Counted from the first letter of the stretch, positions 12,131 through 59,126 are shown. The stretch is DNA of 64,000 nucleotides from Escherichia coli (GCF_046105845.1 NZ_CP151004.1), one strand, 5' to 3'. Translations and numbers: made by a program. The notes: generated by a model not told the origin, from the sequence alone.

Positions 12131-12163
12131 CCCCGCCAGCTATAATCGCGGGGCTTCGTTTTT
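12131..12163 (+). terminator. rho-independent terminator after ykgJ
   Basis: GC stem CCCCGC...GCGGGG followed by a T-run (CTTCGTTTTT). Confidence 0.5.
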
Positions 12164-12342: not shown

Positions 12343-12355
12343 ATCATTCAATGCA

Positions 12356-17214: not shown

Positions 17215-17223
17215 GGAGGAACA

Positions 17224-18180
17224 ATGTCATACCCACTTTTTGACAAAGACGAGCACTGGCATAAGCCAGAGCAGGCGTTTCTCACCGATGACCACCAGGC
17301 CATTCTGCGCTTCGCCGTAGAGGCGCTAATGTCCGGTAAAGGAGCGGTGCTGGTGACGCTGGTGGAAATACGCGGCGGCGCGGCGCGCCCGCTCGGGGCG
17401 CAGATGGTGGTGCGCGAAGATGGCCGTTACTGCGGTTTTGTCTCTGGCGGCTGCGTGGAGGCCGCTGCCGCTTTTGAAGCGCTGGAGGTGATGGGCTCAG
17501 GCCGCGATCGCGAAGTTCGCTATGGCGAAGGTTCACCGTGGTTTGACATCGTTCTGCCCTGCGGCGGTGGGATCACGCTGACGCTCCATAAACTACGCTC
17601 GGCACAGCCTCTGCTCGCCGTGCTGAACCGCCTGGAACAGAGAAAACCGGCGGGTCTGCGCTACGATCCGCAAGCTCAATCGCTGGTGTGCCTGCCCACG
17701 CAAACCCGGACGGGCTGGAATCTCAATGGCTTTGAGGTGGGGTTCAGGCCATGCGTCAGGCTGATGATTTACGGACGTTCTCTTGAGGCGCAGGCAACCG
17801 CGAGTCTTGCAGCAGCCACAGGCTATGACAGCCATATCTTCGATCTTTTTCCGGCCTCAGCCAGCGCTCAGATCGATACCGATACGGCGGTCATTTTGCT
17901 GTGCCATGATCTCAACCGGGAGCTGCCAGTGTTGCAGGCCGCGCGAGAAGCAAAACCCTTTTATCTCGGCGCATTGGGCAGCTATCGAACCCACACGTTA
18001 CGTCTGCAAAAGCTCCACGAGCTGGGATGGTCCAGGGAGGAAACAACGCAAATCCGGGCACCCGTCGGGATATTCCCCAAAGCCCGGGATGCGCATACTC
18101 TGGCACTCTCCGTGCTGGCAGAAGTCGCCTCTGTACGTCTCCATCAGGAGGAGGATTCATGCCTGCCCCCGTCGTCCTGA
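17224..18180 (+). CDS. paoD: molybdenum cofactor insertion chaperone (XdhC family)
   Basis: 318 aa immediately after paoC; XdhC/CoxI-like. Confidence 0.85.
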   Translation: MSYPLFDKDEHWHKPEQAFLTDDHQAILRFAVEALMSGKGAVLVTLVEIRGGAARPLGAQMVVREDGRYCGFVSGGCVEAAAAFEALEVMGSGRDREVRYGEGSPWFDIVLPCGGGITLTLHKLRSAQPLLAVLNRLEQRKPAGLRYDPQAQSLVCLPTQTRTGWNLNGFEVGFRPCVRLMIYGRSLEAQATASLAAATGYDSHIFDLFPASASAQIDTDTAVILLCHDLNRELPVLQAAREAKPFYLGALGSYRTHTLRLQKLHELGWSREETTQIRAPVGIFPKARDAHTLALSVLAEVASVRLHQEEDSCLPPSS

Positions 18181-23700: not shown

Positions 23701-23776
23701 TGGTGCCGATAATAGGAGTCGAACCTACGACCTTCGCATTACGAATGCGCTGCTCTACCAACTGAGCTATATCGGC
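23701..23776 (-). tRNA. thrW: tRNA-Thr (anticodon CGU)
   Basis: The reverse complement reads GCCGATATAGCTCAGTTGGTAGAGCAGCGCATTCGTAATGCGAAGGTCGTAGGTTCGACTCCTATTATCGGCACCA: cloverleaf, CGT anticodon, CCA end; next to proA as in K-12. Confidence 0.9.
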
Positions 23777-31668: not shown

Positions 31669-32223
31669 TTATCCTTCGATAAAAGCCATCCCTGTAAATG
31701 TCCGTCGCGGGTTGCCACGTTCAATTTGATGATGGAACATTCGCCACTGCGATTTCAGCGCCGCGCTATTTTCCTGTTGCTGTTGTTCCAGCTTCCAGGC
31801 AATCAGCAATCGCGCCAGCCGCTTGTTAGCATGCCCAGAAACCAGTTTTTGCGCCCATGATGAGGCCGATACGGACTCGGACAAATCCACTGAATAGTGC
31901 CGCACCAACTTTCGCTTAATGCCCATGCGTTATCGCCATCCAGAGAAATCAGCGCCGAACGCAGCGTGTCAGAGTAGCGGCCCGTTTCTGTTTCCAGCAC
32001 CGTTACCGCGACGTCTTGCCGGGTAAAAACGGCCTGCGGAGAAGAACGCTGCGCCAATCGGGTAGCCGCGTCCGGGGTGTAAATCTGGCATCCCTACTAC
32101 GCGCTGCATGTTGGGTAAATTTGCCGTGGTGTGTAATTGTTGGATCGCTAAACTCTCGATCCACAGGTCATCAGATGCGATGGTAAATACCGCATAGGAT
32201 AAGGGACGAATATATTTGCCCAT
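31669..32223 (-). pseudogene. prfH: rtcB-like/prfH (release-factor homolog) remnants, frameshifted
   Basis: Three overlapping minus-strand ORFs in different frames: 31969..32223 (RtcB-like N-terminus, ...[14 protein letters not shown]...), 31803..32057 and 31669..31926 (release-factor-like pieces). Needs at least one frameshift to join and lacks most of rtcB. Confidence 0.6.
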
Positions 32224-32467
32224 GTATCATTCCATTTATACTCGTCATACTTCAAGTTGCATGTACTGCGACTCGAATTATTTAGAGTATATAAATATAA
32301 AAATCAGGAAATGGCAGACGAATCCAGGGCAAGAAAAAAGAATTAATCCTGGAAAGGTCTGCAAAGAGTCATTGATAAAGGATTTGTCATGATTTACCTC
32401 CTTGCAGTTTGTGGAATAAGAAAACGCGCACATACCAGGCGGGTGTTATTTTCATTGCAAGCTGAAT

Positions 32468-33675: not shown

Positions 33676-34731
33676 TCATAATCCCAGCACCAGTTGTCTT
33701 TCCATTTGCGGGTCAAGTAACGTCACATGCAGCCCCACCAGACGCACACCGCGCCCGCCACGGCGTTCATCCCAGGTTTTACGCGCAGTGGCGATCAAGT
33801 CAGCTTTATTCAGCCGTGGCCAGACGTGCTCCTGAGTAGTTTGCTGAAAATCATCAAACTTTAATTTCACCCCCTGGCGAGCAATCAGTAAATCAGGTTT
33901 AACCTTTGCCAGGCGGCGTTCAAGTTCCGGGTACAGCCGCTCGATAATCGCTTCACATTCAGACCAGTGATGAATATCTTCCGCCATCGTGCGTTCCACG
34001 CCGACGGATTTTCGCAACCGTTCGCTGTTAACGTCGCGCTCGTCAATCCCCTGACTACGCTCCCACAAAATGCGGCCAAATTTGCCAAAACGTTTGAGCA
34101 GAGTCACCAGATCACACTTTTGCACATCACCGCAGGTCCGCAGCCCCATCGCTTCCAGTTTTGCCGCCGAAACTTTGCCGACGCCGGGAATTTTTGCCAG
34201 CGGTAAGGTTTGCAGAAATGCCGGAACTTCTGCCGGAGTAATCACAAACTGACCGTTGGGTTTATTCATGTCGGAAGCAATTTTGGCGAGAAACTTTACC
34301 GGCGCAACGCCCGCAGATGCCGTCAGTTGCAGCTCGTTAAAGATCGTCTGACGGATTTCCTGGGCGATGAGGGTCGCGGAGCCGTGGCAATGCACACTAT
34401 CGGTGACGTCGAGATAGGCTTCATCCAGTGATAACGGTTCAATGCGCGAGGTGAAGCGCGAGAAAATTTCGCGGATATGATTTGAGGCTTCTTTGTAGGC
34501 GTCAAAGCGCCCTGGAAGCAGCGTGAGATGTGGGCATAATTTGAGTGCCATCCCTGTCGGCATAGCGCTACGTACGCCAAATTTACGCGCGGGATAATTG
34601 GCGGTGCTGATCACCCCCCGACGTTCGCGGCTGCCGCCAATAGCAATAGGGATATCGCGCAGGGCGGGATTGTCGCGCATCTCCACCGCTGCGAAAAAGC
34701 AGTCCATATCCACATGAATGATTTTACGCAT
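33676..34731 (-). CDS. dinB: DNA polymerase IV (Y-family translesion polymerase)
   Basis: 351 aa starting [33 protein letters not shown]...: canonical Y-family N-terminus. Confidence 0.9.
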
Positions 34732-34745
34732 TGCTCACCTCTCAA

Positions 34746-34765
34746 CACTGGTAAAGTATACAGTG
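34746..34765. promoter_or_regulatory. LexA (SOS) box upstream of dinB
   Basis: CACTGGTAAAGTATACAGTG contains CTG-N10-CAG with an AT-rich core, 15-30 bp upstream of the dinB start. Confidence 0.7.
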
Positions 34766-34801
34766 ATTTCAGGGTTTGAGAAATGCGTAAAGATTCAGCA
34801 T

Positions 34802-35500
34802 CTAGCGCGTTCGCTGCGAATGCACCTGCTGCTTATCCAGCTTTTGCACCAGCGGCTGCACCACTTTATCCCCATGCTGACCAAAGTATTGATACAGCGT
34901 ATCGGACGCACTTTTGGTCAGCACCATAATCTCAATGCGTCGGTTGCCCGCGCTTTGCGGATTTTTCGCGTCCAGCAGCATCTGGTCCGCCATCGCGCTC
35001 ACCTGCATCACTTTATCTTCCGGCATTCCGGCCTCTTCCAGCACCCGACGAGCCGAAAGCGCGCGATCGCCCGAAAGGTTCCAGTTGTTGTAGATATTGT
35101 TTTTGTAGGCCATCGCATCGGTATGCCCGGTAATAATAATTTTGTTATCGAGCGAGTCGAACACTGGCGCGAGCTCCACCAGCAAAGTTTTAAAGAACGG
35201 CATAATCTGTGCGCTGCCGCGTTCAAACATATTGCGGTTCTGGTCATCTTTAATCAGCACGCGCAGTCCCTGGGGAACAATCTCCATCTCCAGATTCGCT
35301 TCCATATGTGCATCACGGGCAATGGTGTTGATACTGGTCGCCAGCTCGCCAAGCTCAGTAGCGGATTTCTTCTTCAGCAGCGCCGTTTTCTCATTGACGT
35401 CACGCGCTTTTTTCTCCGTCTCTTCCGGCACCGCCACGGTGGCAGGTTTTGGCGGATGAGACGGGCTGATTTTATTTAACGGCGACAACCCGCCGCCATT
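34802..35500 (-). pseudogene. lafU: lateral-flagellar MotB-like protein remnant (Flag-2 scar)
   Basis: C-terminal OmpA/MotB-like region (...IITGHTDAMAYKNNIYNNWNLSGDRALSARRVLEEAGMPEDKV...NRRIEIMVL...) with no N-terminal TM anchor; the 5' part of the annotated ORF is merely antisense to the lfhA fragment. 5' boundary approximate. Confidence 0.6.
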
Positions 35501-35539
35501 GAAAATCGACTGCCCGTGCAGCGCGGCGATAATGCTTTC

Positions 35540-37271
35540 ACGCTCGGATTTACTGACGCTGTTGACAATCAACTTTATCGTCGTCACCAAAGGGGCCGAG
35601 CGTATTTCCGAGGTTTCTGCCCGCTTTACCTTAGACGCGATGCCCGGTAAACAGATGGCGATTGACGCCGATCTTAACGCTGGGTTGATCAACCAGGCGC
35701 AGGCGCAAACCCGGCGTAAAGATGTTGCCAGCGAGGCCGATTTCTACGGCGCGATGGACGGGGCATCGAAGTTTGTGCGCGGGGACGCCATCGCCGGGAT
35801 GATGATTCTGGCGATCAACCTGATCGGCGGCGTCTGTATCGGCATCTTCAAATACAACCTGAGCGCCGACGCCGCCTTCCAGCAGTATGTGCTGATGACC
35901 ATCGGCGACGGGCTGGTGGCGCAGATCCCGTCCCTGCTGCTCTCCACCGCGGCGGCAATTATCGTCACCCGCGTCAGCGACAATGGCGATATCGCCCATG
36001 ACGTGCGCCACCAGCTGCTGGCAAGCCCGTCGGTGCTCTACACCGCCACCGGGATCATGTTTGTGCTGGCGGTGGTGCCGGGGATGCCGCATCTGCCATT
36101 TTTGCTGTTCAGCGCCCTGCTGGGTTTTACCGGCTGGCGGATGAGCAAACGCCCGCAGGCGGCGGAGGCGGAGGAGAAAAGCCTCGAAACGCTGACCCGC
36201 ACCATCACCGAAACCAGCGAGCAACAGGTCAGTTGGGAGACTATTCCGCTGATCGAACCCATCAGTTTAAGCCTCGGTTACAAACTGGTGGCGCTGGTCG
36301 ATAAAGCGCAGGGTAACCCACTCACCCAGCGTATTCGCGGCGTGCGGCAAGTGATATCCGACGGCAACGGCGTGCTGCTGCCGGAGATCCGTATTCGGGA
36401 AAACTTCCGCCTCAAGCCCAACCAGTACGCCATATTCATCAACGGCATTAAGGCCGATGAAGCGGATATTCCGGCGGATAAACTGATGGCCCTGCCCTCC
36501 AGCGAAACCTACGGCGAGATTGACGGCGTGCTGGGGAACGACCCGGCGTACGGGATGCCGGTCACCTGGATTCAGCCTGCGCAGAAAGCGAAGGCGCTGA
36601 ATATGGGGTATCAGGTGATCGACAGCGCCAGCGTGATTGCCACCCATGTGAACAAGATTGTCCGCAGCTATATTCCTGATTTGTTTAACTATGACGATAT
36701 TACTCAGCTGCATAACCGTTTGTCGTCGATGGCACCGCGACTGGCGGAAGATTTGAGCGCGGCGCTCAATTACAGCCAGTTGCTGAAAGTGTACCGGGCG
36801 CTACTGACTGAAGGCGTTTCCCTACGCGATATCGTCACCATCGCCACCGTGCTGGTCGCCAGTAGCACAGTGACCAAAGATCATATTCTGCTGGCAGCTG
36901 ATGTGCGCCTGGCGCTACGGCGCAGCATTACCCATCCGCTCGTTCGCAAGCAGGAGCTGACGGTGTATACGCTGAATAATGAGCTGGAAAATCTGCTGAC
37001 CAACGTGGTGAATCAGGCGCAACAGGCCGGCAAAGTGATGCTCGACAGCGTGCCGGTGGACCCGAATATGCTTAACCAGTTCCAGAGTACGATGCCACAG
37101 GTGAAGGAGCAGATGAAAGCGGCGGGGAAAGACCCGGTGCTGCTGGTGCCGCCGCAACTGCGTCCATTGCTGGCGCGCTATGCAAGGTTGTTTGCGCCGG
37201 GGCTGCATGTGCTGTCGTATAACGAAGTGCCGGATGAGCTGGAGTTGAAGATTATGGGGGCGCTGAGTTGA
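35540..37271 (+). pseudogene. lfhA: FlhA-family export-gate protein, N-terminally truncated (Flag-2 scar)
   Basis: Reading frame carries FlhA motifs (VVTKGAERISEVSARFTLDAMPGKQMAIDADLNAG) but starts inside the membrane domain with no proper N-terminus or RBS; overlaps the lafU remnant. 5' boundary approximate. Confidence 0.65.
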
Positions 37272-37307
37272 TGCCTTTTAAGAAACACAATACGATGACA
37301 TCAATTT

Positions 37308-37703
37308 ATGACGTCAGGGATTGATAAGATGATGAAAACGCGTTTATTAATATCTCAAGCATCGAACATTATCACCATTAAAGGTCAACCAGCCGCAGTG
37401 ACATTTGAAGCCGATATCAACGCATTTCGCGGCAAATTTCTCAATGTAAATGGTTATTGCGACTTTGTAGCGACAAGCATTGAGGCGTTATACCGGGAAG
37501 GTGAAAGTGCGCTGGATGAGTGGATGGCGGATTGTGAAGAGGACGGCATTGCCCCTTTTCGTGAAGAAGAGCAAAAACGCCTGACGCTTCGTGTTCCTCA
37601 TCACATCGATTCACGACTGACCATTGTCGCCAGACAACATTCCATTTCAAAAAATCAGCTCATTGTTGATGTATTAGAACGTGAGTTTTCATCCCAGATG
37701 TAA
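37308..37703 (+). CDS. HicB-like antitoxin-fold protein with C-terminal ribbon-helix-helix
   Basis: 131 aa; the C-terminus (KRLTLRVPHHIDSRLTIVARQHSISKNQLIVDVLEREF) looks like a CopG/Arc-type RHH; the N-terminal half resembles the HicB fold only loosely. Followed by a clear terminator. Confidence 0.45.
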   Translation: MTSGIDKMMKTRLLISQASNIITIKGQPAAVTFEADINAFRGKFLNVNGYCDFVATSIEALYREGESALDEWMADCEEDGIAPFREEEQKRLTLRVPHHIDSRLTIVARQHSISKNQLIVDVLEREFSSQM

Positions 37704-37759: not shown

Positions 37760-38518
37760 TTACAAAATCGTCTCTTCCGTCAAAATCCTGCGCGCGCCTA
37801 AAAAATGATCCTGCCAGAAAGGCTCAGCTAACCGACTTACCCGAATGGTTTCCCCCGTGCGCGGCGACTCGATAAACTGACCGTCTCCCAGATACACGCC
37901 CATATGATCGGCTATCTCGCGGCTGTGGATATGGAAAAACAGCAAATCTCCCCGGCGCAGGTCGTTGTTCGCCACAATCGTTGCCCGATGGTAGTGATAC
38001 ATCTCATTAGCCGTACGCGGGAGCTTCGCCTCGAGGATCTTGTTGTAGGCATAAAAAACCAACCCGCTACAGTCGAAGCCTTGATCAGGCCGCGTGCCGC
38101 CCCAGACGTAAGGTTTGCCAAGCTGCTGCTCCAGGCGGTGAATCGCCACTTCGGTGATGTTGTGTAGATGGTCGCTGCTTAAGAAATGGTTGTTCTCCGC
38201 CAGCGCCTGCCAGCGTCTGTCACTCGCCTTGAGCGGCGCAGGAAACCATTCTGGATGCTGTTTTATCTGTTCGCGGTTGTGCTGGCGCAGCGCCTTTCTG
38301 CTTTCGGCATTGCCTTCCACAATGTAGCTGGCCTGCTTTTTCAGATGGGTTTGGTACTGTTTTAATAAACGCGCCCGGTTTTGCATCCGCTGGCGGGCGG
38401 CGTAGCTGAAAGAGATATGTGATGTGGTGGCGCTGGCGAGTAAAGGGAGCAAAACGCATAACGAAAACACGCCTGGATGCAGAAATCTGCCGTGAAAGAA
38501 CGAAGACATGAAGGACAT
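37760..38518 (-). CDS. yafL: NlpC/P60 (C40) family peptidase lipoprotein
   Basis: C-terminal NlpC/P60 signature (FDCSGLVFYAY ... HMGVYLG); N-terminal signal/lipoprotein-like region; start may be the second Met. Confidence 0.85.
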   Translation of the reverse strand: MSFMSSFFHGRFLHPGVFSLCVLLPLLASATTSHISFSYAARQRMQNRARLLKQYQTHLKKQASYIVEGNAESRKALRQHNREQIKQHPEWFPAPLKASDRRWQALAENNHFLSSDHLHNITEVAIHRLEQQLGKPYVWGGTRPDQGFDCSGLVFYAYNKILEAKLPRTANEMYHYHRATIVANNDLRRGDLLFFHIHSREIADHMGVYLGDGQFIESPRTGETIRVSRLAEPFWQDHFLGARRILTEETIL

Positions 38519-38809
38519 AAACTAGCTGAATGAAGGAGAGAATTTTAAAAGGTTGGGGGAGTAAACGGGATTATTAATTGCTTATTTGCATATTAGTTAC
38601 GAGGTTTCATAATCTTAGGAAATAAGTGATACATGCGCTTTTCGGACTAATGAAAACTGCCCCTGTGCTAAATTTGTAAACCCTGCGCCGACAGGCTTGC
38701 GTAAAACTCTTTTGGTGATAATGTGAGCCTTCCAAATCCAGACTATTCCGATTTGGGATCCATTTTGCCGTCCTGGCGTGTGTAACCGTTTTATCAAGGA
38801 ATAAGCAGT

Positions 38810-39550
38810 ATGCGTAAAATCGCATTAATTCTTGCGATGTTGTTGATCCCGTGCGTTTCGTTTGCCGGTTTGCTGGGCAGCAGTAGCTCAACCACGCCAG
38901 TGAGCAAAGAGTATAAGCAGCAGTTGATGGGATCCCCTGTCTACATCCAGATCTTCAAGGAAGAACGTACGCTCGATCTCTACGTCAAAATGGGCGAGCA
39001 ATATCAGCTGCTCGACAGTTATAAAATCTGTAAATATTCCGGCGGCTTAGGGCCAAAACAGCGTCAGGGCGATTTCAAAAGCCCGGAAGGGTTTTATAGC
39101 GTCCAGCGTAATCAGTTAAAACCAGACAGCCGTTACTACAAAGCAATTAATATTGGATTCCCCAATGCCTATGACCGTGCGCATGGTTATGAAGGGAAAT
39201 ACCTGATGATCCACGGCGATTGTGTTTCCATCGGCTGCTACGCGATGACCAATCAGGGTATTGATGAGATCTTCCAGTTCGTTACTGGTGCGCTGGTGTT
39301 TGGTCAGCCGAGCGTGCAAGTGAGTATTTACCCGTTCCGCATGACCGACGCCAATATGAAGCGCCATAAGTATTCCAACTTTAAGGACTTCTGGGAGCAA
39401 CTGAAACCGGGCTACGACTACTTTGAGCAAACCCGTAAGCCACCGACCGTTTCTGTGGTCAATGGCCGTTACGTGGTCAGCAAGCCGTTAAGCCACGAAG
39501 TTGTGCAACCACAGCTGGCATCAAACTACACGCTCCCCGAGGCAAAATAA
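38810..39550 (+). CDS. yafK: L,D-transpeptidase-fold periplasmic protein YafK
   Basis: 246 aa; signal peptide [19 protein letters not shown]; YkuD-like catalytic region ([14 protein letters not shown]). Confidence 0.85.
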
Positions 39551-40288
39551 GCGCCATTCGCCTGGCATAATCTTTTGCCAGGTTTCATTGCCCGTCAGCG
39601 GCTGTGTCGCAATCACCGTGACCACATCATTCGGTGTGGTCTGCGAGCTGAAGTCGATTTCCACATCCTGATCCAGCAACGTTGCCACGCCAAACGGCGC
39701 GCGGCGGGTGATCCAGTGTAAATTAGTCGAGCAATACGCCATTACATAGCGCCCGTCAGAAAGCAGCATGTTGAAAACGCCCTTCTGCCGCAGTTCATCC
39801 GCCAGTGAGGCGATATATTTAAACACTGCCGCCATGTTGCCCGGTGTGCGCGGGTAACGCTGCGTTAATTTATGCAGGAGCCAGCAGAAGGCTTTTTCGC
39901 TGTCGGTTTCACCGACCGGGCGGAAGTTGCCGGTTTCCAGTGATTTATAGCCCGTCAGTTGCCCATTATGGGCATAAGTCCAGTTACGCCCCCATAACTC
40001 GCGGGTAAACGGGTGAGTATTTTCCAGCGCCACCTCGCCCCGATTCGCCTGGCGAATATGAGCCACCACCGAACAGGATTTTATCGGGTAGTCCTGGACA
40101 AGTTTGGCGATGGGAGAATTAAAGCTGGGTTGCGGATCTTTAAATGTGCGACAGCCTTTACCTTCGTAAAAGGTAATGCCCCAGCCATCTTTATGTGGCC
40201 CGGTTCCACCACCACGCTGTACAAGCCCGGTGAAACTAAAGCAGATATCGGTAGGGACGTTGGCGCTCATCCCGAGCAATTCGCACAT
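39521..40288 (-). CDS. yafJ: class II glutamine amidotransferase
   Basis: Start at MCELLGMS... (Cys2 nucleophile typical of class II amidotransferases), 255 aa. Confidence 0.85.
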
Positions 40289-40403
40289 GGGTAACCTCCA
40301 CAACAGCGGGAGCGCATGGCCCCCGGCGAAGATTGATTAAAAAGTACAAAGGTTCAGGCTGTTACCCTCACCCCGGCCCTCTCCCTGAAAGGGAGAAAAG
40401 ACC

Positions 40404-40982
40404 TTACTTAACCATCTCTTTTTCAATCAACTGGATCAGGATATGGATCACTTTAATGTGAATCTCCTGAATGCGGTCGGCATAACCAAAGTGCGGTACG
40501 CGAATTTCGATATCCGCTGTGCCAGCCATTTTACCGCCGTCTTTACCGGTCAGGGTGATCACTTTCATCCCCTTCTCACGCGCCGCCGCGATCGCTTTGA
40601 TCACGTTTGCAGAGTTACCGGAGGTGGAGATCCCCAGCAGTACATCGCCTTCGCGACCTACCGCTTCAACGTAACGGGAGAAAATATCATTGAAACCAAA
40701 ATCGTTACCGACGCAGGAAATATGACTAACGTCAGAAATGGCAATCGCCGGATAGCCCGGACGGTTTTCACGGTAGCGACCGGTCAACTCTTCGGCAAAG
40801 TGCATGGCGTCGCAATGGGAGCCGCCGTTGCCGCAGGAAAGCACTTTACCACCGGCTTTAAAGCTGTCTGCTAACAGGACCGCCGCGCGCTGAATGGCGT
40901 GAATATTGGCGTCATCTTTTAAAAAGTTAGCCAGCGTTTCCGCCGCTTCGTTCAGTTCATTACGAATAAGATCCTGGTACAT
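40404..40982 (-). CDS. gmhA: D-sedoheptulose 7-phosphate isomerase
   Basis: 192 aa from [20 protein letters not shown]...; SIS-domain motifs. Confidence 0.9.
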
Positions 40983-41221
40983 GAGGATATCCTTCAGCAT
41001 AAATGTAATAGACAAAATGCAGTGTACCGGATACCGCCAAAAGCGAGAAGTACGGGCAGGTGCTATGACCAAGACTTTTTGACCTGAAGTGCGGATAAAA
41101 ACAGCAACAATGTGAGCTTTGTTGTAATTATATTGTAAACGTATTGCTAAATGTTTTTACATCCACTACAACCATATCATCACAAGTGGTCAGACCTCCT
41201 ACAAGTAAGGGGCTTTTCGTT

Positions 41222-45822: not shown

Positions 45823-47199
45823 TTACTGACTTTGTTCCACCTTCGTATCCAGTAAAATTACATAGCGATTCAGCAACTGATTTAACCGGGTATCTATCTG
45901 CGTCAACAGCGTCGGCGAAACCTCTCCGGTCTGTTTTTGCTCTTCCAGTTGCCGAAGCAGTTCTTCCAGCGGCGGCTCCTTTAACGACTGCCGGATGCCG
46001 TACACCGCCGTTTTTAGTTCCGAGCCGGTCAGATATCTCCCCTTACGCTCATCCAGTGCATCCAGCTGCGCCGACAGGCGCTGTAGCTGGCTTTGCGCCT
46101 GTGCGTAGCCATTCAATGCCTCAGCAGACATGGCGCTCAGCTCCCGCTGCTTACGCCACTGCGCGTTCAGCGCCCTGACCTGAGGATTATCCGGCCACAG
46201 GGCATCAAGCTGGCGTAGCTGGCGATATCCCTGCTCCAGCGGCCAGCGGGCAGGCAATTTGTTTAACTGCTCCAGCTGCATCTGACTTGCCGCAATTGTT
46301 CTGTCCTGAGCCAGCAGCGCCTTATCCTTTACATCCAGCTTTGCCAGTTCGCCGCTCTCCAGCGACTGCGGCAACGGCATGACAGACAGTTGTATTCGCT
46401 GGATTAGCGCGTCCGGCTGATTAAGCTGCGACCAGCCCCATAATCCTGTTCCGCCGAGACAGGCCATCACAACCATTCCGGCCATAAATATCGGCCATGC
46501 CCGCTGCCGGGAGATTTCAGGGGATGGCACGGATGGACTGGCATCCTTATCGTTTTGCTGAGCGGGTCTGGTTGCAAAAACCGGCTGTGGACTTTCTTCT
46601 GACTTTTTCGGTTGCTTCATTTCCTTGCGGGGTAATTCAGGGGGAGTGATAGTGGTTTCCGCTCCCTGTGGTGCCAGCCGCTCCAGACGTAGCGCCGCAT
46701 TACGAAACTGCCCGGCCAGCACATCCAGTTTCGTCATATGCCACAGTTCACACTGTTGCAGCGTGGTTTCGATGGCGGAAAGATGCTGTACACAACGGTA
46801 AATCTGCGGCAGATCCTGATACTGAATATCCAGCGTTCTCAGTGCCTGCTGCATTTTTTCTGTGACCCAGCTGAGCAGTGATATTCTGGAATGTACCTGT
46901 ACCGGCCAGAAGTCGGCCCATCGCTGGAGCAGTATGTCCAGTGAACCGAGTCCGTCTGCCATCCCTGCCAGCCCCTGCCGTCTGGTTATCGCCAGTACGT
47001 AACAGACCAGCGTCTGTAATTCCACGCCATTTTGCCGGAACAGCGCGAGGCTGAGTTTTTCCACCTGACGCCAGTCCACATCCGGTCGGGCCGGGTGAGT
47101 CAGTTTACTCATTTCAGCCTGCAGTTCACCGGATTCCTTATAAGTACAGGGATCGCCGCCCATGACGAACTGGCTGATAAAATTCGCGTTACTTGCCAT
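45823..47199 (-). CDS. TssA-family (ImpA_N domain) membrane-anchored T6SS accessory protein, TagA/VasL-like
   Basis: 458 aa; N-terminal ImpA_N-like region (GGDPCTYKESGELQAEMSKL...), one central TM helix (AWPIFMAGMVVMACLGGTGLWGW), Q/L-rich coiled-coil C-terminus; last gene of the T6SS block. Confidence 0.6.
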   Translation of the reverse strand: MASNANFISQFVMGGDPCTYKESGELQAEMSKLTHPARPDVDWRQVEKLSLALFRQNGVELQTLVCYVLAITRRQGLAGMADGLGSLDILLQRWADFWPVQVHSRISLLSWVTEKMQQALRTLDIQYQDLPQIYRCVQHLSAIETTLQQCELWHMTKLDVLAGQFRNAALRLERLAPQGAETTITPPELPRKEMKQPKKSEESPQPVFATRPAQQNDKDASPSVPSPEISRQRAWPIFMAGMVVMACLGGTGLWGWSQLNQPDALIQRIQLSVMPLPQSLESGELAKLDVKDKALLAQDRTIAASQMQLEQLNKLPARWPLEQGYRQLRQLDALWPDNPQVRALNAQWRKQRELSAMSAEALNGYAQAQSQLQRLSAQLDALDERKGRYLTGSELKTAVYGIRQSLKEPPLEELLRQLEEQKQTGEVSPTLLTQIDTRLNQLLNRYVILLDTKVEQSQ

Positions 47200-47627
47200 C
47201 AGTACGCCCGCTCCTGCTGTTTGAGATGACGCAGAACAATTCGTCCTTCCGGAGAAAATACGCCATCAAAGCGTATCCAGCCGGTATCGGGAAGCTGCGC
47301 GTGGATCAGGTAATTAAGATGCCCCGGACGGGGCTGGGGGAGTAACTCCACCTGTATCTGACTCAGGCGTGGTTCATAACGCAGCAGCGTTTCTTCAATC
47401 TGACGCATCAGGCCATGAATACCCGCAGCCATCCCCTGATGGATCAGACTGAGATCCGGCAGACCGTAATCCGGCAAATGCGCCAGCGTGCCTGCCCGAC
47501 AGTTGATAATGCGTTGCATATTGTCCATCACGGAAAGGATAAGCTGATCCCGCTCGCTGACCTGTTCCAGTGGTAACTCGCCGCTGAAACTGAACGTCAG
47601 CATTTCATATAAGGAAGGTGTCGACAT
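47199..47627 (-). CDS. tssE: T6SS baseplate protein TssE (gp25-like)
   Basis: 142 aa, size and position between tssJ and the TagA-like gene with a 1-nt overlap; family call by context. Confidence 0.7.
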   Translation of the reverse strand: MSTPSLYEMLTFSFSGELPLEQVSERDQLILSVMDNMQRIINCRAGTLAHLPDYGLPDLSLIHQGMAAGIHGLMRQIEETLLRYEPRLSQIQVELLPQPRPGHLNYLIHAQLPDTGWIRFDGVFSPEGRIVLRHLKQQERAY

Positions 47628-47630
47628 CGG

Positions 47631-48167
47631 TTATTTATCCTTGAGAGGCAGCAGTCGCAGGTCGCTTCTCATCAGTTCAATCGAGCGCGGCTTGTCGGCC
47701 TCCAGTTCGTCCCTTTTGATCACCAGACGCCAGCTGTCGCTTTTTTCATCAGGGTGATAAAACTGCCCGATAATGGCGACAAACTGCGTCTCTTTATCCA
47801 GCGGCTCATTCAGGGATGCCGTGCCTTCCGGTTTTACCCAGACGGTGTGTTTTGCCAGTACGTCCTTCTCCAGCGTCTTCTCTTCCTGCATAAACAGGGT
47901 GTCATAATCCGCCTTGTCAAAATCTTCGCGGGTTTTCAGTTGCCAGACATGCACCATCGTGGAAAGCGGCGTATCTTCCGCATCCGTATTCAGGGCACTT
48001 CGGGAGAAGAAATCGAGATGCAGTATTTTGATTTGCTTGTAGAAAACGGCTGAGGCCACGCTTTTCGATTCATCCACCACTTTCTGAATCAGCCCGCAGC
48101 CACTCAGAACAACCGTCAGCATCGCCATACAGAGCAGCGCCGGACGTTTAAAACGAATAGGAAACAT
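47631..48167 (-). CDS. tssJ: T6SS outer-membrane lipoprotein TssJ
   Basis: 178 aa; lipoprotein signal with lipobox LSGC (MFPIRFKRPALLCMAMLTVVLSGC). Confidence 0.7.
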   Translation of the reverse strand: MFPIRFKRPALLCMAMLTVVLSGCGLIQKVVDESKSVASAVFYKQIKILHLDFFSRSALNTDAEDTPLSTMVHVWQLKTREDFDKADYDTLFMQEEKTLEKDVLAKHTVWVKPEGTASLNEPLDKETQFVAIIGQFYHPDEKSDSWRLVIKRDELEADKPRSIELMRSDLRLLPLKDK

Positions 48168-49236
48168 GAGTCATACACTCCCTGTTACGAATGGATAAAG
48201 CGGGTATTAATCCCTGATAACGCCCCAGACTGACCGTCACTGTTCCGGTCGCGGGCGCGGCAAAGGAGGCGCGAAGGATGCCGGTACGGCTAATCTGTAC
48301 GCGCTGTTTTCCCAGCCGGGCAGCAGGCAACAGGCTGACGGGCAGTGTCAGTTGCAGACGGGCCTGACAGCGCCAGCCCAGATAAACGCGCAGCAGTACC
48401 AGCAAATCGCTGTGCAGCTGTCCGCCAGGCAGCCAGCCACGCGCTTCTGCGGCATCTTCGGTATACAGTTTCAGCAGCAACTGGCTGTTGACGTCGGTGC
48501 CGGTACGCCCCAGCAGCGTTCGCGTTTTCAGGCTGATGCGTGAATTTTTTGACAGACCCGCAGGGGCCGGGAGAATAACAGGCTGCGGATCATGAGGCAC
48601 CACCGTCGCTTTCGTCAGCGGGGCAAGCAGTCCCACCAGTGCCGTAACGCCTTCCGCCGTGCGCGTCGGCAGGCGCATCACGCTGAGCAGGGCCAGAAAA
48701 CGGGATACCGGCGTGGCGATATGGTTCTCGCTGCCGGGAATACCCAGCCCGATGAGTCCCAGCAGACAACGGGAAATGTCATCCACAGCACCTGCTTCAA
48801 ACGACGCCGGGTAGTTATATTTGCGCCAGATGCGGTAATACTGGGTGATAAAGCGGTGGTTAAAAATATCGAGAAACGCCATCACTGCGTCATGTCCGTC
48901 ATGACGCTGGGTAATGTAGTCCAGATAGGCGGTTGGCAGCGGCGAATCCACGCCGTACAGGCCGAAAAAGGTGGTGCGCACCGTGGGTGGTGCGTCGGGA
49001 TTGTCCACGTCACGTTCAACGTTCTTTAACTCGCTGACCGGAAAGCCCATTCCGGGATGGGGACGAAAGCGCACCGCATCGGCGGCGGGGCTGTCGGTAC
49101 TGCCCAGCGGCGCTTTCTGTTGGCTCTGTTCCAGCAACTGGCAAAAACGGTAAAAATTGATCCGCGCAATATCCGGGGCCAGCCGGTCGGTCAGCCCGGT
49201 ACGCGCTGGCTGTGATGCTCTGTCCATTGCAGGCAC
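48148..49236 (-). CDS. tssG: T6SS baseplate protein TssG
   Basis: 362 aa; N-terminal F.F.Q.LE-type motif (INFYRFCQLLEQ); follows tssF with overlap. Confidence 0.75.
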   Translation of the reverse strand: MPAMDRASQPARTGLTDRLAPDIARINFYRFCQLLEQSQQKAPLGSTDSPAADAVRFRPHPGMGFPVSELKNVERDVDNPDAPPTVRTTFFGLYGVDSPLPTAYLDYITQRHDGHDAVMAFLDIFNHRFITQYYRIWRKYNYPASFEAGAVDDISRCLLGLIGLGIPGSENHIATPVSRFLALLSVMRLPTRTAEGVTALVGLLAPLTKATVVPHDPQPVILPAPAGLSKNSRISLKTRTLLGRTGTDVNSQLLLKLYTEDAAEARGWLPGGQLHSDLLVLLRVYLGWRCQARLQLTLPVSLLPAARLGKQRVQISRTGILRASFAAPATGTVTVSLGRYQGLIPALSIRNRECMTHVSYSF

Positions 49237-50951
49237 TTTCCTGTGGGTTGCAGAATTAAGGTCAGTTGAGTGAATAAGTGGATATCGGCATACAGTGCGA
49301 AGAAGCGGTGCAGCAGTTCACCAAACAGTGTGATATCACCTTCTCCGGCAAAGCCGTTACTGTCCAGCGTTACCTGAATATCCACGCCACGCAGCAGAAA
49401 GCCTCTTTCAAAACGCTGTATCAGGCTGTGCTGAACGTCGACAATCGCCTCCAGACGACGGCGGTTCATCTCGCTTTCGGTCCAGTCGTACAACGCCAGC
49501 GTGCCGCGCACAATTTCGGCGTTATCCATCATCGATAAAAAGTTAGAACCAAGGTGGCTGAGCACCCGCCAGTGGAAGCGGTCACGCGCCGGGGGATAGC
49601 AGGGCTGCGTCGGGGCGCACAGGTTGCGCACCCGCAGGACGTTCTGTGAGGCGTGGACTGGCGTATCGAGTAGCGTGCTCTGTAAAGCTTTACGGGGAAG
49701 CTGCCCGTTAGTGCCGGTCAGACTTAAGGACAGAGTTTCATCCTCCAGCATCCGGTCAGAATCAAACGCATCGCCGCCCAGAATCAGCCAGGTATCATGC
49801 AGGCCGGAAGGGCCGCGCTTAACCCGCGTATGGTAATAACGTTCCGGCGCATCGTGGCGCAGCATCCCGCCCCGGTGACGAAAGCTGGAGAATGGCACAT
49901 ACGCCTGACTGCCGGTATGGCGCGAAGAAATAATGTTGTCGACGGAATAAATCTCGGTATGCCCGTCCTGAATTCGCATCGGGCGCAGCAGAAATTCGTT
50001 TTCCAGTGGCGAAAGGTGTAACGGATCGGCTTCCAGCGGGAACAGGTTGATAACCGGCACGCAGTGCAGGCGGAGATTGTCGGTATTAAACGGCAAATCA
50101 TGAGGCCAGCTTTCCGCCAGCACCACGTCAATCTCAAAGCCGGTTATCCCTTCCGGCCAGATGACGTTCTCCAGCCCGTTGAGTGCCACAAACATAAACT
50201 TCTCGCGGAAGGTGAAATACTCCAGCAGCAACTGGTAGCCGCTGAACGCCGACTCGCCTTTTGGCCAGAGCCTGTCATTATCCTCAAAGCCCAACGGGGA
50301 AAAGTGTGCGTCAAGCGTCCGGCGATCCTGCCCCGGCAGACGCAACCAGAACTGCTGCGTACCAAGCGTTAAAGCCCGGTGCAGCGCACAGGCCACCGGA
50401 CTGTCGGCATTGAGATAGAGCGGCAGGCGGGATAAATCGATCTGTGACCAGTCACCGACCAGCGGGCCGCATTCAAAGCGCAGACGAATAACCGAACGTC
50501 CGTCCGGTTCATATTGCAATGACACGTCCGGCAACGCCAGCGGATGCAGCGTGATATCCCGCGTGGCGCTGTAGAAACAGCGGGTTCTGCGCTCGCCAAC
50601 AGGGCGCGACAATACCTGAAAATCGCTCAGCGTTTCGCTCTGCTTCATCTGCCGGTGATCTGTCGACAGTTCAACCACGGAAAGTGACGGGATAGTTCGC
50701 AGGTAGTGAGGCCACAGCAGGCTGACCAGCCCTTCAGTCAGCTCCGGCAGATCGTCGTCCAGCTTCTCGCGCAGGCGGCCCATTAAAAAAGCAAAGCCTT
50801 CGAACAGGCGTTCCACATAGGGATCGCGTGCGCCGGGTTTATCAAGATTGAGCATCGCGGCGCGGTCGGGGTAAGCCTGCGCAAATTCTTTCCCCGCTTC
50901 ACGCAGGTAGCGCATTTCGGCTTCGTAGTAGCGTTGGGTTAAGTCGTCCAT
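49191..50951 (-). CDS. tssF: T6SS baseplate protein TssF
   Basis: About 590 aa; start placed at the ATG of MDDLTQRYYEAEMRYL (the ORF track begins at an upstream TTG, 50990); tssF-tssG pairing. Confidence 0.75.
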   Translation of the reverse strand: MDDLTQRYYEAEMRYLREAGKEFAQAYPDRAAMLNLDKPGARDPYVERLFEGFAFLMGRLREKLDDDLPELTEGLVSLLWPHYLRTIPSLSVVELSTDHRQMKQSETLSDFQVLSRPVGERRTRCFYSATRDITLHPLALPDVSLQYEPDGRSVIRLRFECGPLVGDWSQIDLSRLPLYLNADSPVACALHRALTLGTQQFWLRLPGQDRRTLDAHFSPLGFEDNDRLWPKGESAFSGYQLLLEYFTFREKFMFVALNGLENVIWPEGITGFEIDVVLAESWPHDLPFNTDNLRLHCVPVINLFPLEADPLHLSPLENEFLLRPMRIQDGHTEIYSVDNIISSRHTGSQAYVPFSSFRHRGGMLRHDAPERYYHTRVKRGPSGLHDTWLILGGDAFDSDRMLEDETLSLSLTGTNGQLPRKALQSTLLDTPVHASQNVLRVRNLCAPTQPCYPPARDRFHWRVLSHLGSNFLSMMDNAEIVRGTLALYDWTESEMNRRRLEAIVDVQHSLIQRFERGFLLRGVDIQVTLDSNGFAGEGDITLFGELLHRFFALYADIHLFTQLTLILQPTGKCLQWTEHHSQRVPG

Positions 50952-51026
50952 CGGAGGATTTATCTTTCCTTTTATTGAAATTAATACCAACGAGTAGTGA
51001 GATTAGAATTTTTTATTTTCAGAATC

Positions 51027-51431
51027 CTAAGGACATATAGATGGATCATTTATTTCAAAAGAAAAATCGGACTCCATACTAGATGAGGATTTTTTCAATA
51101 AAGAGGAGATATGATATCCAGATAAAGTTTTAGAATTGTTACCATCAGATATCAAAATACTAAGTTCAGAAACAATATTTACAGGGTTTTTATTAAAAAC
51201 ATCTGACTCTCTACCTGTGTAAATAAAGTATACAATTGGCTTCCGCTCTCCGATATCAAGATGAAAATTATCTCTTACTTTACCATCATAATGTGTTGAA
51301 TTATTGACCGTCGAAATGTTAATAGATACTTTGCATGTATTTACCATGACAATGGAACAAGAATAGAATGGTTGAGATAAACATCCAGCACACAGCGTAC
51401 ATAATAAAAAAAAGAATATTAATCTAGTCAT
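51027..51431 (-). CDS. lipoprotein-like secreted protein; candidate immunity protein for the upstream PAAR toxin
   Basis: 134 aa; N-terminal signal peptide with Cys cluster (MTRLIFFFLLCTLCAGC...); start overlaps the stop of the PAAR-HExxH gene by 8 nt; AT-rich. Confidence 0.4.
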   Translation of the reverse strand: MTRLIFFFLLCTLCAGCLSQPFYSCSIVMVNTCKVSINISTVNNSTHYDGKVRDNFHLDIGERKPIVYFIYTGRESDVFNKNPVNIVSELSILISDGNNSKTLSGYHISSLLKKSSSSMESDFSFEINDPSICP

Positions 51432-52863
51432 GAAATTTCACCCGAGATAACCATATCATTGCACATACATCGTTTTCGACAGCAACCGACCTTGCATATA
51501 GATCACTGGTGTATATATGCCCATTATAATATTTCATTAAATCTATCTCGCCAGTTCCTGGATAAACTGAATGAGGCAGTGCATATTGAGGTGGTACAAG
51601 ATTAGAGGTCCCTTTATGCTCCCATGAATACGTATTCCCACCGTAACTTTTTAATATCATATGACCAGTCTCATGGGCTACATCAAGTTTAAATTCTAAT
51701 CCAGCCTTAAAAACAGGATCCGCGCCTTTCTGATACCCACGGCCATATTCATAATACCCCCTATTGAAATAAATGTTCATACGTCCCATAAAAGCACTAG
51801 ACCTGACGCTTTCTAGATCTTGCTCCTCAATTAAATCAAAAGAATCCATGGCTGGATCAATATTTATTGATACAGAGATATTTACATTATATTTACCGTG
51901 CGGAGTAGTAATATTATTGCCAATTCCGGGATTCCTCATTCCATTTCGTGCCCAATAATACTCTATTCCATCCTTGGCAAGTTGCTTTAATTTTTCAAAC
52001 CCTACAGGTGCAATACGATCATCTTTATGACTCACACCATCATCTTCAAATTCTACTCGCCAACTGACATCAACTATTTTTTGATTCTTGTCTACTTTTA
52101 CATCAATCCAATCTTCCTCATTCGCAGAAGTTTTCAATGGATAATCAACTTTTATCATCATATCACCACATAAAGCAATCAGTCTTACGAGTAGTGATTT
52201 GCTTTTTAGCTTAGTTGTATCCAGTATGTCTTGATTACTGTAGCCATCCCATTGCCAGGCATGCTCTCCCTTATCAAAATATTTACCGGTCTGCTGTTCA
52301 CTATAAATCACTTCATTACCATCAAGCACTTCCAGAGAAAGCGCTTCAGCCTCATCGCCTTTATTTGTGATGGTAAAATCTATTTTTTCTGTATTCTTCG
52401 TACTACCACCGCTAATCATTTCTTTATAATCAGGTATATTCAATGGCGTCAGTATCTTATTACCTGATAATTTAATTCTGTAATCCAGTTTTACATCATC
52501 TGAGGATGAATCAGAACCAGAAGTCAGATCCTTTTTCGCCGACTGCGCATGTTGTTCCGCTTCACTTCCCCCGTCATCCGTCTCATACACATCATCCATC
52601 ATTGACGCAATAAATCGCGCCTTACACGGGCAACTGCTCTGACTGTCCAGCGATCCCGCCATCAGCCTGCCGTGAATATCCGTTTCCGGCACGCCGCCGA
52701 CGATAATAAACATCCCCGAATGTTTACCGCAGGTCACTCTGTCCATATCCCGCGCCTGCGGGATACCCATGATCGTATGGTCGTCCGCCCCTTCAATAAT
52801 TTTGCCGCCGCAGGTGGTCTTATCGCCCCTGACCAGAAAATAGCCTCTTCCCATCGTCATCAC
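51424..52863 (-). CDS. PAAR-domain protein with C-terminal HExxH (putative zinc metallopeptidase-like) toxin domain
   Basis: 479 aa. The N-terminal ~90 aa fit the PAAR pattern (RGDKTTCGGKIIEGADDHTIMGIPQARDMDRVTCGKHSGMFIIVGG); then an acidic/Ser-rich linker; the C-terminal region contains HETGH. Start overlaps the tssA stop. Confidence 0.65.
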   Translation of the reverse strand: MMTMGRGYFLVRGDKTTCGGKIIEGADDHTIMGIPQARDMDRVTCGKHSGMFIIVGGVPETDIHGRLMAGSLDSQSSCPCKARFIASMMDDVYETDDGGSEAEQHAQSAKKDLTSGSDSSSDDVKLDYRIKLSGNKILTPLNIPDYKEMISGGSTKNTEKIDFTITNKGDEAEALSLEVLDGNEVIYSEQQTGKYFDKGEHAWQWDGYSNQDILDTTKLKSKSLLVRLIALCGDMMIKVDYPLKTSANEEDWIDVKVDKNQKIVDVSWRVEFEDDGVSHKDDRIAPVGFEKLKQLAKDGIEYYWARNGMRNPGIGNNITTPHGKYNVNISVSINIDPAMDSFDLIEEQDLESVRSSAFMGRMNIYFNRGYYEYGRGYQKGADPVFKAGLEFKLDVAHETGHMILKSYGGNTYSWEHKGTSNLVPPQYALPHSVYPGTGEIDLMKYYNGHIYTSDLYARSVAVENDVCAMIWLSRVKFHD

Positions 52864-54497
52864 TCCTTATGCTGCGTATCACACAGTACCGCTGCCCGTA
52901 CCGGATCGATTGTCACCAGCGTTCCCAGCAGGATTTCCATTTTTCGGTTCAGCAGGGCTTTATCCGCATAGCGGTGCGCCCGCAGGCGCAGCAGTTTCAG
53001 TTGCCGGGCTTTTACCTCAAACAGCAGTTCCGGCTCCCACTGCGTCAGCGTTATTCCCTGTGCGGCGGTATCCAGTTCTTCCAGCAGCAGGAGTGCCATC
53101 TCGTTTTTACCGTACTGTTCCGCCACCCGCGCCATCAGCAGCCGCAATAACAGGCGCTGTCGTGCCGTGGTGATGCCCGGACGGGTCTGTATCCAGCCCA
53201 GCGCCGCTTCCACGCCCTGACTGTCTGCCATCTCCAGTGCTTCCGGCTCCAGCGCCAGTACGTCATTTGTGGCGTCGTCTGTCGGTACAGCGGCTTTCCC
53301 CGCAAGCCATGCGCCGTCTTCCCGCATCATGACCTGCTGCGCTATCCAGTTGCGCGTCACCTCATCGGCGAACGGTGTGCCGTCGTTCCATGCCAGATTT
53401 TCCAGCCCCGGCAGGCGTTCCAGCAGTAACGCCAAGTCCTGACGGATAACGGCTGTCCACCTGTCCCACGGTACGCCCGCCTTAGTCAGCGCCTGATGCA
53501 GATACCACTGAATGTCCAGCCAGAAATGGCTGACGCCGGTGCTGAACATCAGGTCGGCCTGCTCCAGCAGTTCCGTCCAGTTCTGCTGGGCATACAGCCG
53601 CTTAAGCTGATTGCGTGACTCGGTGCGCGGCGGGGCCAGCCGGGTTTTGCCGTCCACATCCGGCGGCAGTTCATGCACCGTGTCCCAGCGCAGGGTTTTC
53701 ATCAGCCGGTGCGCCGAAAGCCAGCCCTGCGGCTGTTCATTCAGATAACGGGCCAGCACTTTCGCCTGGTCGAGCAGGTCACGCCCGGAGGTGATGGTCT
53801 GTACCTGTGGCGCATCCACCGGGGATGACGGTGCAGGAACGCTGCTGCTGTTTTGCGGCACCACTGCGTTCATCCCTCCCGACTGCGCCAGACGCGATTC
53901 CAGCGCGTTAATCAGCGGCATCAGGGAGGGGGAATGCTGGTCTTCGGGCCATGCAGTGAAGGAAACCGTCAACTGACTGAGGGCAGCAACAATGTTCGCA
54001 AAATCCTCTTTTGCCACTTCCGGGTAGCGGGCAAGGCTGTCGAGCATCTTTTCCCCCGCCAGCCACTCCAGCGCCATTTTCCGGCTGGCCGGTCGCGAGG
54101 GCAGCAGTTGCGTACCGAAGCGTTCCACCAGTCCGGTCAGCAGCGCCAGTCCTTCCGCCAGTCCGCGCTCACCGTCGCGGTGCAGTCGCGCCCAGATGTA
54201 GTAAGTGGCGATGCGCACGTCTTTTGCCTGCGTCAGCAGCAGGGATTCGGCAAGCTGGCAGATGAGGTCCGTATCCGCGCCGGAAAGTTTGTTCATCTCG
54301 TCGCGGATACGCAGAAAATCGTCGTGGTAGCCGGGGTCTTCCCCGACCGGCGTATCTGTCGTCACCGGCAGCAGCCATGTCTGCCACAGTGCCGCCTGTG
54401 CTCGCGCCACATCCAGTGCATCCCGGTCGGCAAAACAGCTACGGGTCAGCTTTTGCAACAGTTCACTCATCGGCGTCTTCCCCGTATTCTTCCGCAT
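52860..54497 (-). CDS. tssA: T6SS protein TssA
   Basis: 545 aa; ImpA_N signature (PVGEDPGYHDDFLRIRDEMNKL); immediately downstream of tssM with overlap. Confidence 0.75.
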   Translation of the reverse strand: MRKNTGKTPMSELLQKLTRSCFADRDALDVARAQAALWQTWLLPVTTDTPVGEDPGYHDDFLRIRDEMNKLSGADTDLICQLAESLLLTQAKDVRIATYYIWARLHRDGERGLAEGLALLTGLVERFGTQLLPSRPASRKMALEWLAGEKMLDSLARYPEVAKEDFANIVAALSQLTVSFTAWPEDQHSPSLMPLINALESRLAQSGGMNAVVPQNSSSVPAPSSPVDAPQVQTITSGRDLLDQAKVLARYLNEQPQGWLSAHRLMKTLRWDTVHELPPDVDGKTRLAPPRTESRNQLKRLYAQQNWTELLEQADLMFSTGVSHFWLDIQWYLHQALTKAGVPWDRWTAVIRQDLALLLERLPGLENLAWNDGTPFADEVTRNWIAQQVMMREDGAWLAGKAAVPTDDATNDVLALEPEALEMADSQGVEAALGWIQTRPGITTARQRLLLRLLMARVAEQYGKNEMALLLLEELDTAAQGITLTQWEPELLFEVKARQLKLLRLRAHRYADKALLNRKMEILLGTLVTIDPVRAAVLCDTQHKE

Positions 54498-59066: not shown

Positions 59067-59126
59067 AAAAATAATCCGCTATTAAATTAGGTATATGATG
59101 TGGTTATATCCCGCTTTTCGATTAAA

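Follow-up and report, generated by a model that had tools for sequence, protein, structure and literature searches.

The Flag-2 deletion scar of Escherichia coli: an exact joint that may have formed repeatedly across enterobacterial genera

Did the joint between the truncated lateral flagellar genes lafU and lfhA of Escherichia coli form once, in a distant ancestor, or has it formed many times at the same nucleotide? The question is raised by a stretch of 64,000 nucleotides (nt) from E. coli (GCF_046105845.1, NZ_CP151004.1), hereafter the window, whose numbering is used unless another sequence is named. At positions 34802-37271 the 3′ 769 nt of lafU (minus strand) are joined to the 3′ 1704 nt of lfhA (plus strand). 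There is very little doubt that this region is the deletion scar of the Flag-2 lateral flagella cluster, of the K-12 b0229/b0230 type, and there is no evidence against that identity; the feature itself is already known as the classic fhiA/mbhA remnant. With moderate confidence, and from sequence comparisons, we propose that a site-directed process of some kind has produced this exact joint repeatedly, and in recent times, across different lineages and genera, and not a single time long ago. The features of the scar and its flanks are as follows (TM, transmembrane; ORF, open reading frame).

34802..35570, minus strand: lafU remnant ('lafU), codons 53-307 plus stop, Flag-2 MotB-like stator protein; OmpA-like domain retained, TM anchor and plug lost
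35568..35570, no strand: deletion junction, ATC common to both parents (base-level three-way alignment with both breakpoints of strain 042)
35568..37271, plus strand: lfhA remnant (lfhA'), codons 131-697 plus stop, Flag-2 FlhA-like export-gate protein; uninterrupted 567-codon ORF
35571..35692, minus strand: spurious 5′ extension of the lafU ORF, antisense of lfhA; no lafU homology past 35570
35499..35567, plus strand: spurious 5′ extension of the lfhA ORF, antisense of lafU (ORF list and alignment)
33676..34731, minus strand: dinB, 351-aa ORF, neighbour on the lafU side; collinear with annotated dinB in 7/2, 042 and MG1655
37760..38518, minus strand: yafL (NlpC/P60 peptidase), neighbour on the lfhA side; annotation of the collinear strain 7/2

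The intact reference was the Flag-2 cluster of E. coli 042 (NC_017626.1), extracted as locus L002, in which lfhA occupies 2683-4776 on the minus strand and lafU 40237-41160 on the plus strand. BLASTN against this cluster splits the region in two, with 34500-35573 matching lafU/dinB at 99.6% and 35559-37278 matching lfhA at 96.5%. Lost from lafU are nt 1-155 (codons 1-52) and from lfhA nt 1-390 (codons 1-130), and 36,006 bp are absent relative to the intact cluster. The shared ATC lies inside a 14-bp imperfect direct repeat of which 10/14 positions match (TGTTGACAATCCAC / TGATGATCATCAAC). When the 36-kb interior of the 042 cluster was compared with the whole window by blastn and tblastx there were zero matches, so that no interior Flag-2 sequence is present, and a full-length lfhA or lafU, or other Flag-2 genes, were looked for at the locus and not found. 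A preliminary description, made from the window alone, had proposed a large internal deletion of Flag-2 and suggested alignment with an intact cluster. That alignment maps both breakpoints and finds the 36 kb between them missing, and the deletion is upheld by the mapped breakpoints and the absent interior; the overlap between the two fragments that had been taken as its signature is an artefact of ORF calling. The possibility that the two genes are full-length and truly overlapping is ruled out by the 042 alignment, the breakpoint mapping and the protein comparison.

Flag-2 is a lateral-flagella cluster of roughly 40 genes, with lfhA and lafU at its ends and both transcribed outward. In the window one deletion took away 390 nt from the 5′ end of lfhA and 155 nt from that of lafU, with all that lay between, and left the 3′ portions joined head-to-head at the ATC. 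Relative to the 042 cluster, which lies at the same chromosomal site, the window is without lfhA codons 1-130, lafU codons 1-52 and all genes between.

How the overlap arises is clear from the ORF listing, which gives a 296-codon minus-strand ORF at 34802-35692 and a 590-codon plus-strand ORF at 35499-37271, with stop codons at 34802-34804 (lafU) and 37269-37271 (lfhA). The overlap is 194 nt for these mechanical ORFs and 35 nt for the PGAP models of other strains, and it exists only because each ORF continues past the end of its own fragment along the antisense strand of the other. The overlap of roughly 150 bp given earlier for the fragments does not exist at the level of homology, as that of lafU ends at 35570, that of lfhA starts at 35568 and only the ATC is common. 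Nor do the genes face each other, as had been stated; the truncated 5′ ends abut head-to-head and transcription is divergent, not convergent. A GTG at 35585-35587 is the start used by PGAP in other strains (7/2, O157 and others) for a 261-aa 'LafU' (786-nt coding sequence), and the N-terminus MTTIKL of that model is the antisense of lfhA codons 131-136.

The protein comparison agrees with the DNA breakpoints. Full-length LafU proteins carry PF13677 and PF00691, the combination of TM/plug and OmpA-like domains that marks a MotB-type stator protein; the minus-strand ORF contains the OmpA domain only (PF00691, E=1.3e-14) and is without the PF13677 plug domain. The window protein is identical to residues 53-308 of 042 LafU at 255/256 positions. 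As had been read from the sequence, it is a MotB-like protein without its membrane anchor, for aa 1-52 are gone, including most of the hydrophobic segment 35-58, and it has no signal peptide. The plus-strand ORF matches FHIPEP (E=2e-189) from profile position 99 of 657. This is less than a complete FlhA/FHIPEP export gate, since hydrophobic block 7-66 and most of block 108-143 are deleted and lfhA' begins within the second of these blocks (LfhA residues 108-143). The N-terminal truncation of the FlhA-like protein had thus been recognised correctly, but the loss amounts to 130 residues (codons 1-130) and not to the first 100 or so. From nt 391 to the stop, lfhA' and its 042 counterpart share 96.7% nt identity, with 4 aa differences in 567 codons.

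The locus lies between dinB and yafL and is collinear with the annotated genomes of 7/2, 042 and MG1655. In K-12 MG1655, lfhA (fhiA, b0229) and lafU (mbhA, b0230) are annotated as pseudogenes between rayT/yafL and dinB, with orientation and neighbours as in the window. The junction 13-mer GTTGACAATCAAC at 35561-35573 is identical to MG1655 250056-250068, and the two scars align without gaps over 2,535 nt at 95.5% identity, that is, with about 4.5% nucleotide divergence. The window differs from K-12 in having an orphan hicB and not rayT downstream of lfhA, and in missing the dinJ-yafQ pair. An 81-bp junction segment is identical in 7/2, O157:H7 Z563 and 19KM1776 and carries one single-nucleotide difference in K-12 derivatives; the junction sequence is common to 6/6 E. 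coli scars checked. A contiguous match across the junction was found in 4,071/5,426 complete E. coli genomes (75%), and most of the remaining E. coli genomes split at window 35559-35568, like 042. For the lfhA/lafU region, the searches of complete E. coli genomes also gave 15-17 matches on records classed as plasmids and not as chromosomes.

The original paper on the Flag-2 scar is that of Ren et al. 2005, which is cited by all three of the later papers named here. That K-12 and B keep only the fhiA and mbhA remnants of Flag-2 has been described (PMC3032704), and lfhA/lafU remnants have also been described elsewhere in a literature that treats the scar as uniform (PMC11420993). In the parts of the article considered here, De Maayer et al. 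2020 (PMC6993521) report 76/100 E. coli strains without flag-2, all with truncated copies, and truncated lfhA/lafU pairs in 531/4,028 Enterobacterales strains, Citrobacter included; the same parts ascribe the en bloc loss to direct repeats and do not give the junction. The pairs described there show the same loss between the outermost genes, whereas the present comparison finds a junction at the same nucleotide in at least five genera, with an exact repeat of just 2-3 bp.

Unexpectedly, the remnants look undecayed. Codons 131-697 of lfhA were compared among E. coli strains, 11 with the scar and 5 with an intact cluster, and 16/16 alleles are collinear, without an indel or an internal stop. They contain 209 variable sites, and 39 of the first 40 fall at third-codon positions. 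The pooled ratio of non-synonymous to synonymous divergence (dN/dS) is 0.026 for scar-scar, 0.029 for scar-intact and 0.034 for intact-intact comparisons, at a synonymous divergence (dS) of about 0.18. Moreover, some scar and intact alleles are the same. Over 1704 nt of lfhA-side and 1036 nt of lafU/dinB-side sequence, intact PCN033 has 0 differences from the scars SCU-102 and 19KM1776, and intact MARGA_4 likewise has 0 from the K-12-type scar; intact 042 equals scar C4 on the lfhA side. The likeness extends into wider flanks, with 3 mismatches and 1 gap in 8,077 nt and 4 mismatches in 7,281 nt between the K-12-type scar and MARGA_4, and 2 differences in 8,423 nt and 3 in 2,313 nt between 19KM1776 and PCN033. 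These pairs are clean 36-kb insertion-deletion differences inside clonal backgrounds, and the E. coli scar alleles compared here are not monophyletic but interleaved with intact alleles.

Close to the junction the picture is one of several haplotypes beside short invariant stretches. Within 120 nt of the junction at least 6 haplotypes can be distinguished, and all four combinations of scar or intact with C or T at +12 are found. Zones invariant in E. coli extend for 69 nt on the lafU side and for about 11-38 nt on the lfhA side, and outside them the flanks differ about every 9-20 nt. PRO_A has mosaic flanks, resembling 042 beside lfhA and divergent beside lafU. The window locus is likewise mosaic, being 99.6-99.7% identical to the 042/PCN033 types on the lafU/dinB side and at most 98.3% on the lfhA side. 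Over 24 kb (22000-46000) its backbone reaches at most 98.1% identity to any of the 5,426 complete E. coli genomes, and its source lineage is therefore poorly represented among them.

Scars of other genera were recovered by a protein search with the PGAP-style chimeric LafU followed by inspection of the DNA; a scan of genome contigs for lfhA remnants was dominated by generic FlhA matches (pattern DAMPGKQM) and yielded three close relatives. Truncated LafU proteins without PF13677 were found in Citrobacter gillenii, C. amalonaticus, Citrobacter sp., Kluyvera ascorbata, Kluyvera sp., Atlantibacter hermannii, Atlantibacter sp. and the enterobacterial isolate H11S18. Their N-termini read (M/V)TTIKL^IVNSVS or MKL^IVNSVS (the caret marks the joint), where TTIKL is the antisense of lfhA codons 131-136. 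At the DNA level, every non-Escherichia scar checked has the joint ...ACGAT(A/G)AAGTT(G/A)AT^(T/C)GT(C/T/G)AA(C/T)AGC..., and the junction position is the same in E. albertii, C. gillenii, C. amalonaticus, K. ascorbata, A. hermannii, Atlantibacter sp. and H11S18. In 6/6 non-Escherichia scars lfhA' is an uninterrupted 567-codon ORF starting INFIVVTKG, and yafL lies beside it in the Kluyvera, Citrobacter and Atlantibacter scars.

The flanks of these scars are genus-specific, with inter-genus scar identity of 73-82%. As close as 3-9 nt to the junction, scar and intact alleles of one genus have synonymous bases in common that are peculiar to that genus. Thus Kluyvera lafU has GTT at +6 in both scar and intact form (822/834 positions identical, the first mismatch at 120 nt), C. 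amalonaticus lafU has GTG at +6 in both, and Atlantibacter lfhA, scar and intact, has ATT AAC TTC at +3 and +9. Strains with the intact cluster and strains with the scar are both found in E. coli, E. albertii, K. ascorbata, C. amalonaticus and A. subterraneus, and about 25% of genomes are intact in E. coli and likewise in E. albertii. The E. albertii type strain has the identical junction with decayed remnants (63 gap positions relative to the window and a frameshifted lfhA'). In that decayed scar, from E. albertii NBRC 107761 (2831-5398 of the extracted locus L021), LafU homology stops at residue 299, and no dinB homologue was present within 2.9 kb beyond lafU.

Under the usual reading of fhiA/mbhA, a single ancient deletion was inherited vertically and its remnants decayed neutrally. 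The identical junction in every scar examined, the uniform treatment in the literature and the decayed, frameshifted scar of the E. albertii type strain all fit such a history. It is nevertheless scarcely credible when the 11 E. coli scar alleles have 0 stops and 0 indels at a dN/dS of 0.026 and a dS of 0.18, when scar alleles are interleaved with intact ones and identical to them in three cases, and when the scars of five other genera carry the sequence of their own genus to 3-9 nt from the junction, with lfhA' intact at an inter-genus dS above 1. Alternatively, a single ancient deletion might have been maintained in each genus as a long-standing polymorphism of presence and absence, its flanks being continually overwritten up to the junction by recombination with intact strains. 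The coexistence of both forms in the five species named above, with similar intact fractions in E. coli and E. albertii, is in keeping with this, the flag-2 region of ST131 has been reported as recombinant, and a constant position despite site variation suits common descent. We consider it unlikely all the same, because the polymorphism must predate the split of at least five genera (dS above 1) and conversion tracts must end within 3-9 nt of a 36-kb heterology; with scars at 75%, moreover, most of the flank ancestry would be expected to be neutral, which the dN/dS of 0.026 does not bear out. Within E. coli, a scar of single origin, or of a few origins, may have passed between lineages through homologous recombination, favoured by selection for the loss of Flag-2, with crossovers in the invariant sequence beside the junction. 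This is possible though doubtful: the invariant zones on both sides of the junction and mosaic flanks such as those of PRO_A would accommodate it, but all four scar/intact and C/T (+12) combinations exist, and it leaves unexplained the scars of other genera, in which bases 1-9 nt from the junction already depart from the E. coli sequence. Differences at that distance from the joint also exclude import of the scar between genera by homologous recombination.

We favour a recurrent origin because the remnants are undecayed, scar alleles equal intact alleles, and the same junction occurs with genus-specific flanks. Recurrent, nucleotide-precise excision of the 36-kb cluster would join lfhA codon 130/131 to lafU codon 52/53, with independent excisions in several E. 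coli backgrounds, E. albertii, Citrobacter, Kluyvera, Atlantibacter and relatives. If excision released a circle, its reciprocal joint would read ...CTGTGGAT followed directly by GATCATCAGG.... That the process is site-directed we infer from the recurrence alone. Several points weigh against a recurrent origin. No mechanism of recurrence was found, nor a recombinase domain in the unannotated Flag-2 ORFs; the two sites have no conserved hairpin and no common arm sequence; and the microhomology is just 2-3 bp. Moreover, the same position despite site variation is also expected from common descent, and it is possible that scars have been transferred among E. coli haplotypes by homologous recombination with junction-proximal crossovers in the invariant zones.

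The joint itself would have been made by non-homologous microhomology joining at the ATC, not by homologous recombination, because similarity between the breakpoints is not above the shuffle mean (best local alignment of ±150 nt, score 18 against a shuffle mean of 17.8, hence no extended homology above chance). Seven unannotated or loosely annotated Flag-2 ORFs were scanned and contained no recombinase or transposase domains; with site similarity at chance level, the locus thus does not have the composition of a site-specific recombinase system. Excision of the IS200/IS605 type or by site-specific systems likewise makes one exact joint repeatedly without long homology, a resemblance that serves as a lead only. 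The systems of the IS200/IS605 type have subterminal hairpins, whereas none is conserved at the Flag-2 breakpoints. The ISDra2 target TTGAT equals the end of the left flank of the scar in 5 taxa, but TTAAT stands there in 2 (C. amalonaticus and Atlantibacter), which weakens the case for an ISDra2-like target. A 12-bp palindrome (TGATGATCATCA) is present at the lfhA breakpoint in E. coli. A hairpin with an 8-bp stem over the E. coli lafU breakpoint is disrupted in Kluyvera and was rejected as a required feature. The gene rayT, whose product is of the enzyme kind that such excision requires (TnpA/RayT), is adjacent to the scar site in K-12, 042 and O157 and absent in the window, PCN033 and Kluyvera. 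The motif ATCCTG in lfhA resembles the IncP nic consensus; this candidate was also set aside, as the motif lies 9-12 nt from the break and not at it.

Some further features of the two sites were seen. The joint at 35561-35573 forms a small inverted repeat, GTTGA-CAA-TCAAC. The motif GATnnTCAAC occurs in both parental sites in opposite orientation (lfhA GATCATCAAC, lafU GATTGTCAAC), and reflects similar I/V-N codons in two TM segments. In an intact-Flag-2 C. amalonaticus (2680-3999 of locus L108), a gene for a large serine recombinase (Resolvase, Recombinase and Zn_ribbon_recom domains) lies directly downstream of full-length lafU; it probably belongs to an integrated element, and no equivalent gene was found in E. 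coli 042.

Are the two remnants still genes? Both are presumably non-functional pseudogenes, a reading drawn from the sequence, because each has lost its own start, its upstream promoter region and its N-terminal membrane segments. The LafU periplasmic domain, having neither anchor nor signal sequence, would therefore be unable to reach the periplasm. Against this, both remnants are open ORFs with strongly conservative substitutions, and PGAP calls the lafU remnant an intact coding sequence. One could thus suppose that the truncated genes function as a scar and are kept by purifying selection, as the intact ORFs, a dN/dS of 0.03-0.08 at dS above 1 even between the scars of two Atlantibacter species, and the 261-aa PGAP model of LafU would suggest. 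Such selection was suggested by Atlantibacter, where the scars of A. hermannii and Atlantibacter sp. give a dN/dS of 0.026 at a dS of 1.25; the part of De Maayer et al. considered here (Table 1, PMC6993521) has 0/5 Atlantibacter strains with an intact locus. However, A. subterraneus proved to have a full-length, 696-aa LfhA that differs from the truncated forms of that species at about 3/563 shared aa. Recent derivation explains such conservation, and selection in the scar state was largely rejected once this protein had been found. Since 'LafU also lacks both an anchor and a signal peptide, the scar of E. albertii carries a frameshift, and a consensus scan gave a single weak promoter-like match near the junction (35506-35533, 9/12), we hold functional remnants to be highly unlikely.

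Other features of the window were noted alongside the scar. Directly after lfhA', at 37272-37703, lies an orphan HicB-family antitoxin gene (Pfam HicB, E=1.6e-10) without hicA, followed in the ORF list by yafL, yafK and yafJ; dinB lies beyond the lafU side. Strains 613, 2009C_3996, NR3736 and 205 have hicA-hicB after lfhA', with about 380 nt including hicA where the window has 83 nt. The same site holds rayT in K-12, 042 and O157, and neither rayT nor hic genes in PCN033 and 19KM1776, and it is therefore likely to be a variable insertion point. A second small deletion scar lies at 31800-32250, about 2.5 kb from the Flag-2 scar, and consists of short rtcB and prfH fragments. In 7/2, 19KM1776 and PCN033, which are collinear here, the two genes are annotated as pseudogenes, either partial or frameshifted, and in 042 both are intact. 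Between yafL and yafK/dpaA (38518-38810) the dinJ-yafQ toxin-antitoxin pair is missing, an absence that the window shares with 042, 7/2 and 19KM1776, unlike K-12 and MARGA_4. The remaining features are, by position:

45823-63760, minus strand: type VI secretion cluster with VasL, TssF, TssA/VasJ, TssM/IcmF (1216 aa) and VgrG (833 aa); adjoins yafV/ivy
4626-11465: alternate chaperone-usher (CS1/ECP-like) pilus operon with an 841-aa usher
12150-12350: Rfam IS009 RNA (190 bits)
13377-18180: molybdopterin aldehyde/xanthine-type oxidoreductase operon
23701-23776: tRNA-Thr(CGU)

The scar in the window is in itself ordinary, and serves mainly to mark a strain without lateral flagella. As far as the literature consulted shows, undecayed remnants together with a nucleotide-identical joint across genera have not been described explicitly. 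If the joints are independent, a 36-kb flagellar and type III secretion locus would be irreversibly switched off by a defined molecular process and not by random decay. There would then be an unrecognised site-directed deletion mechanism, or a programmed loss, acting inside two conserved flagellar genes. The patchy distribution of Flag-2 in E. coli and E. albertii, roughly 25% intact to 75% scarred, would have to be read differently, and the scar would be used with caution as evidence of shared ancestry. A recurrent origin would also point to a deletion mechanism that is open to experimental search.

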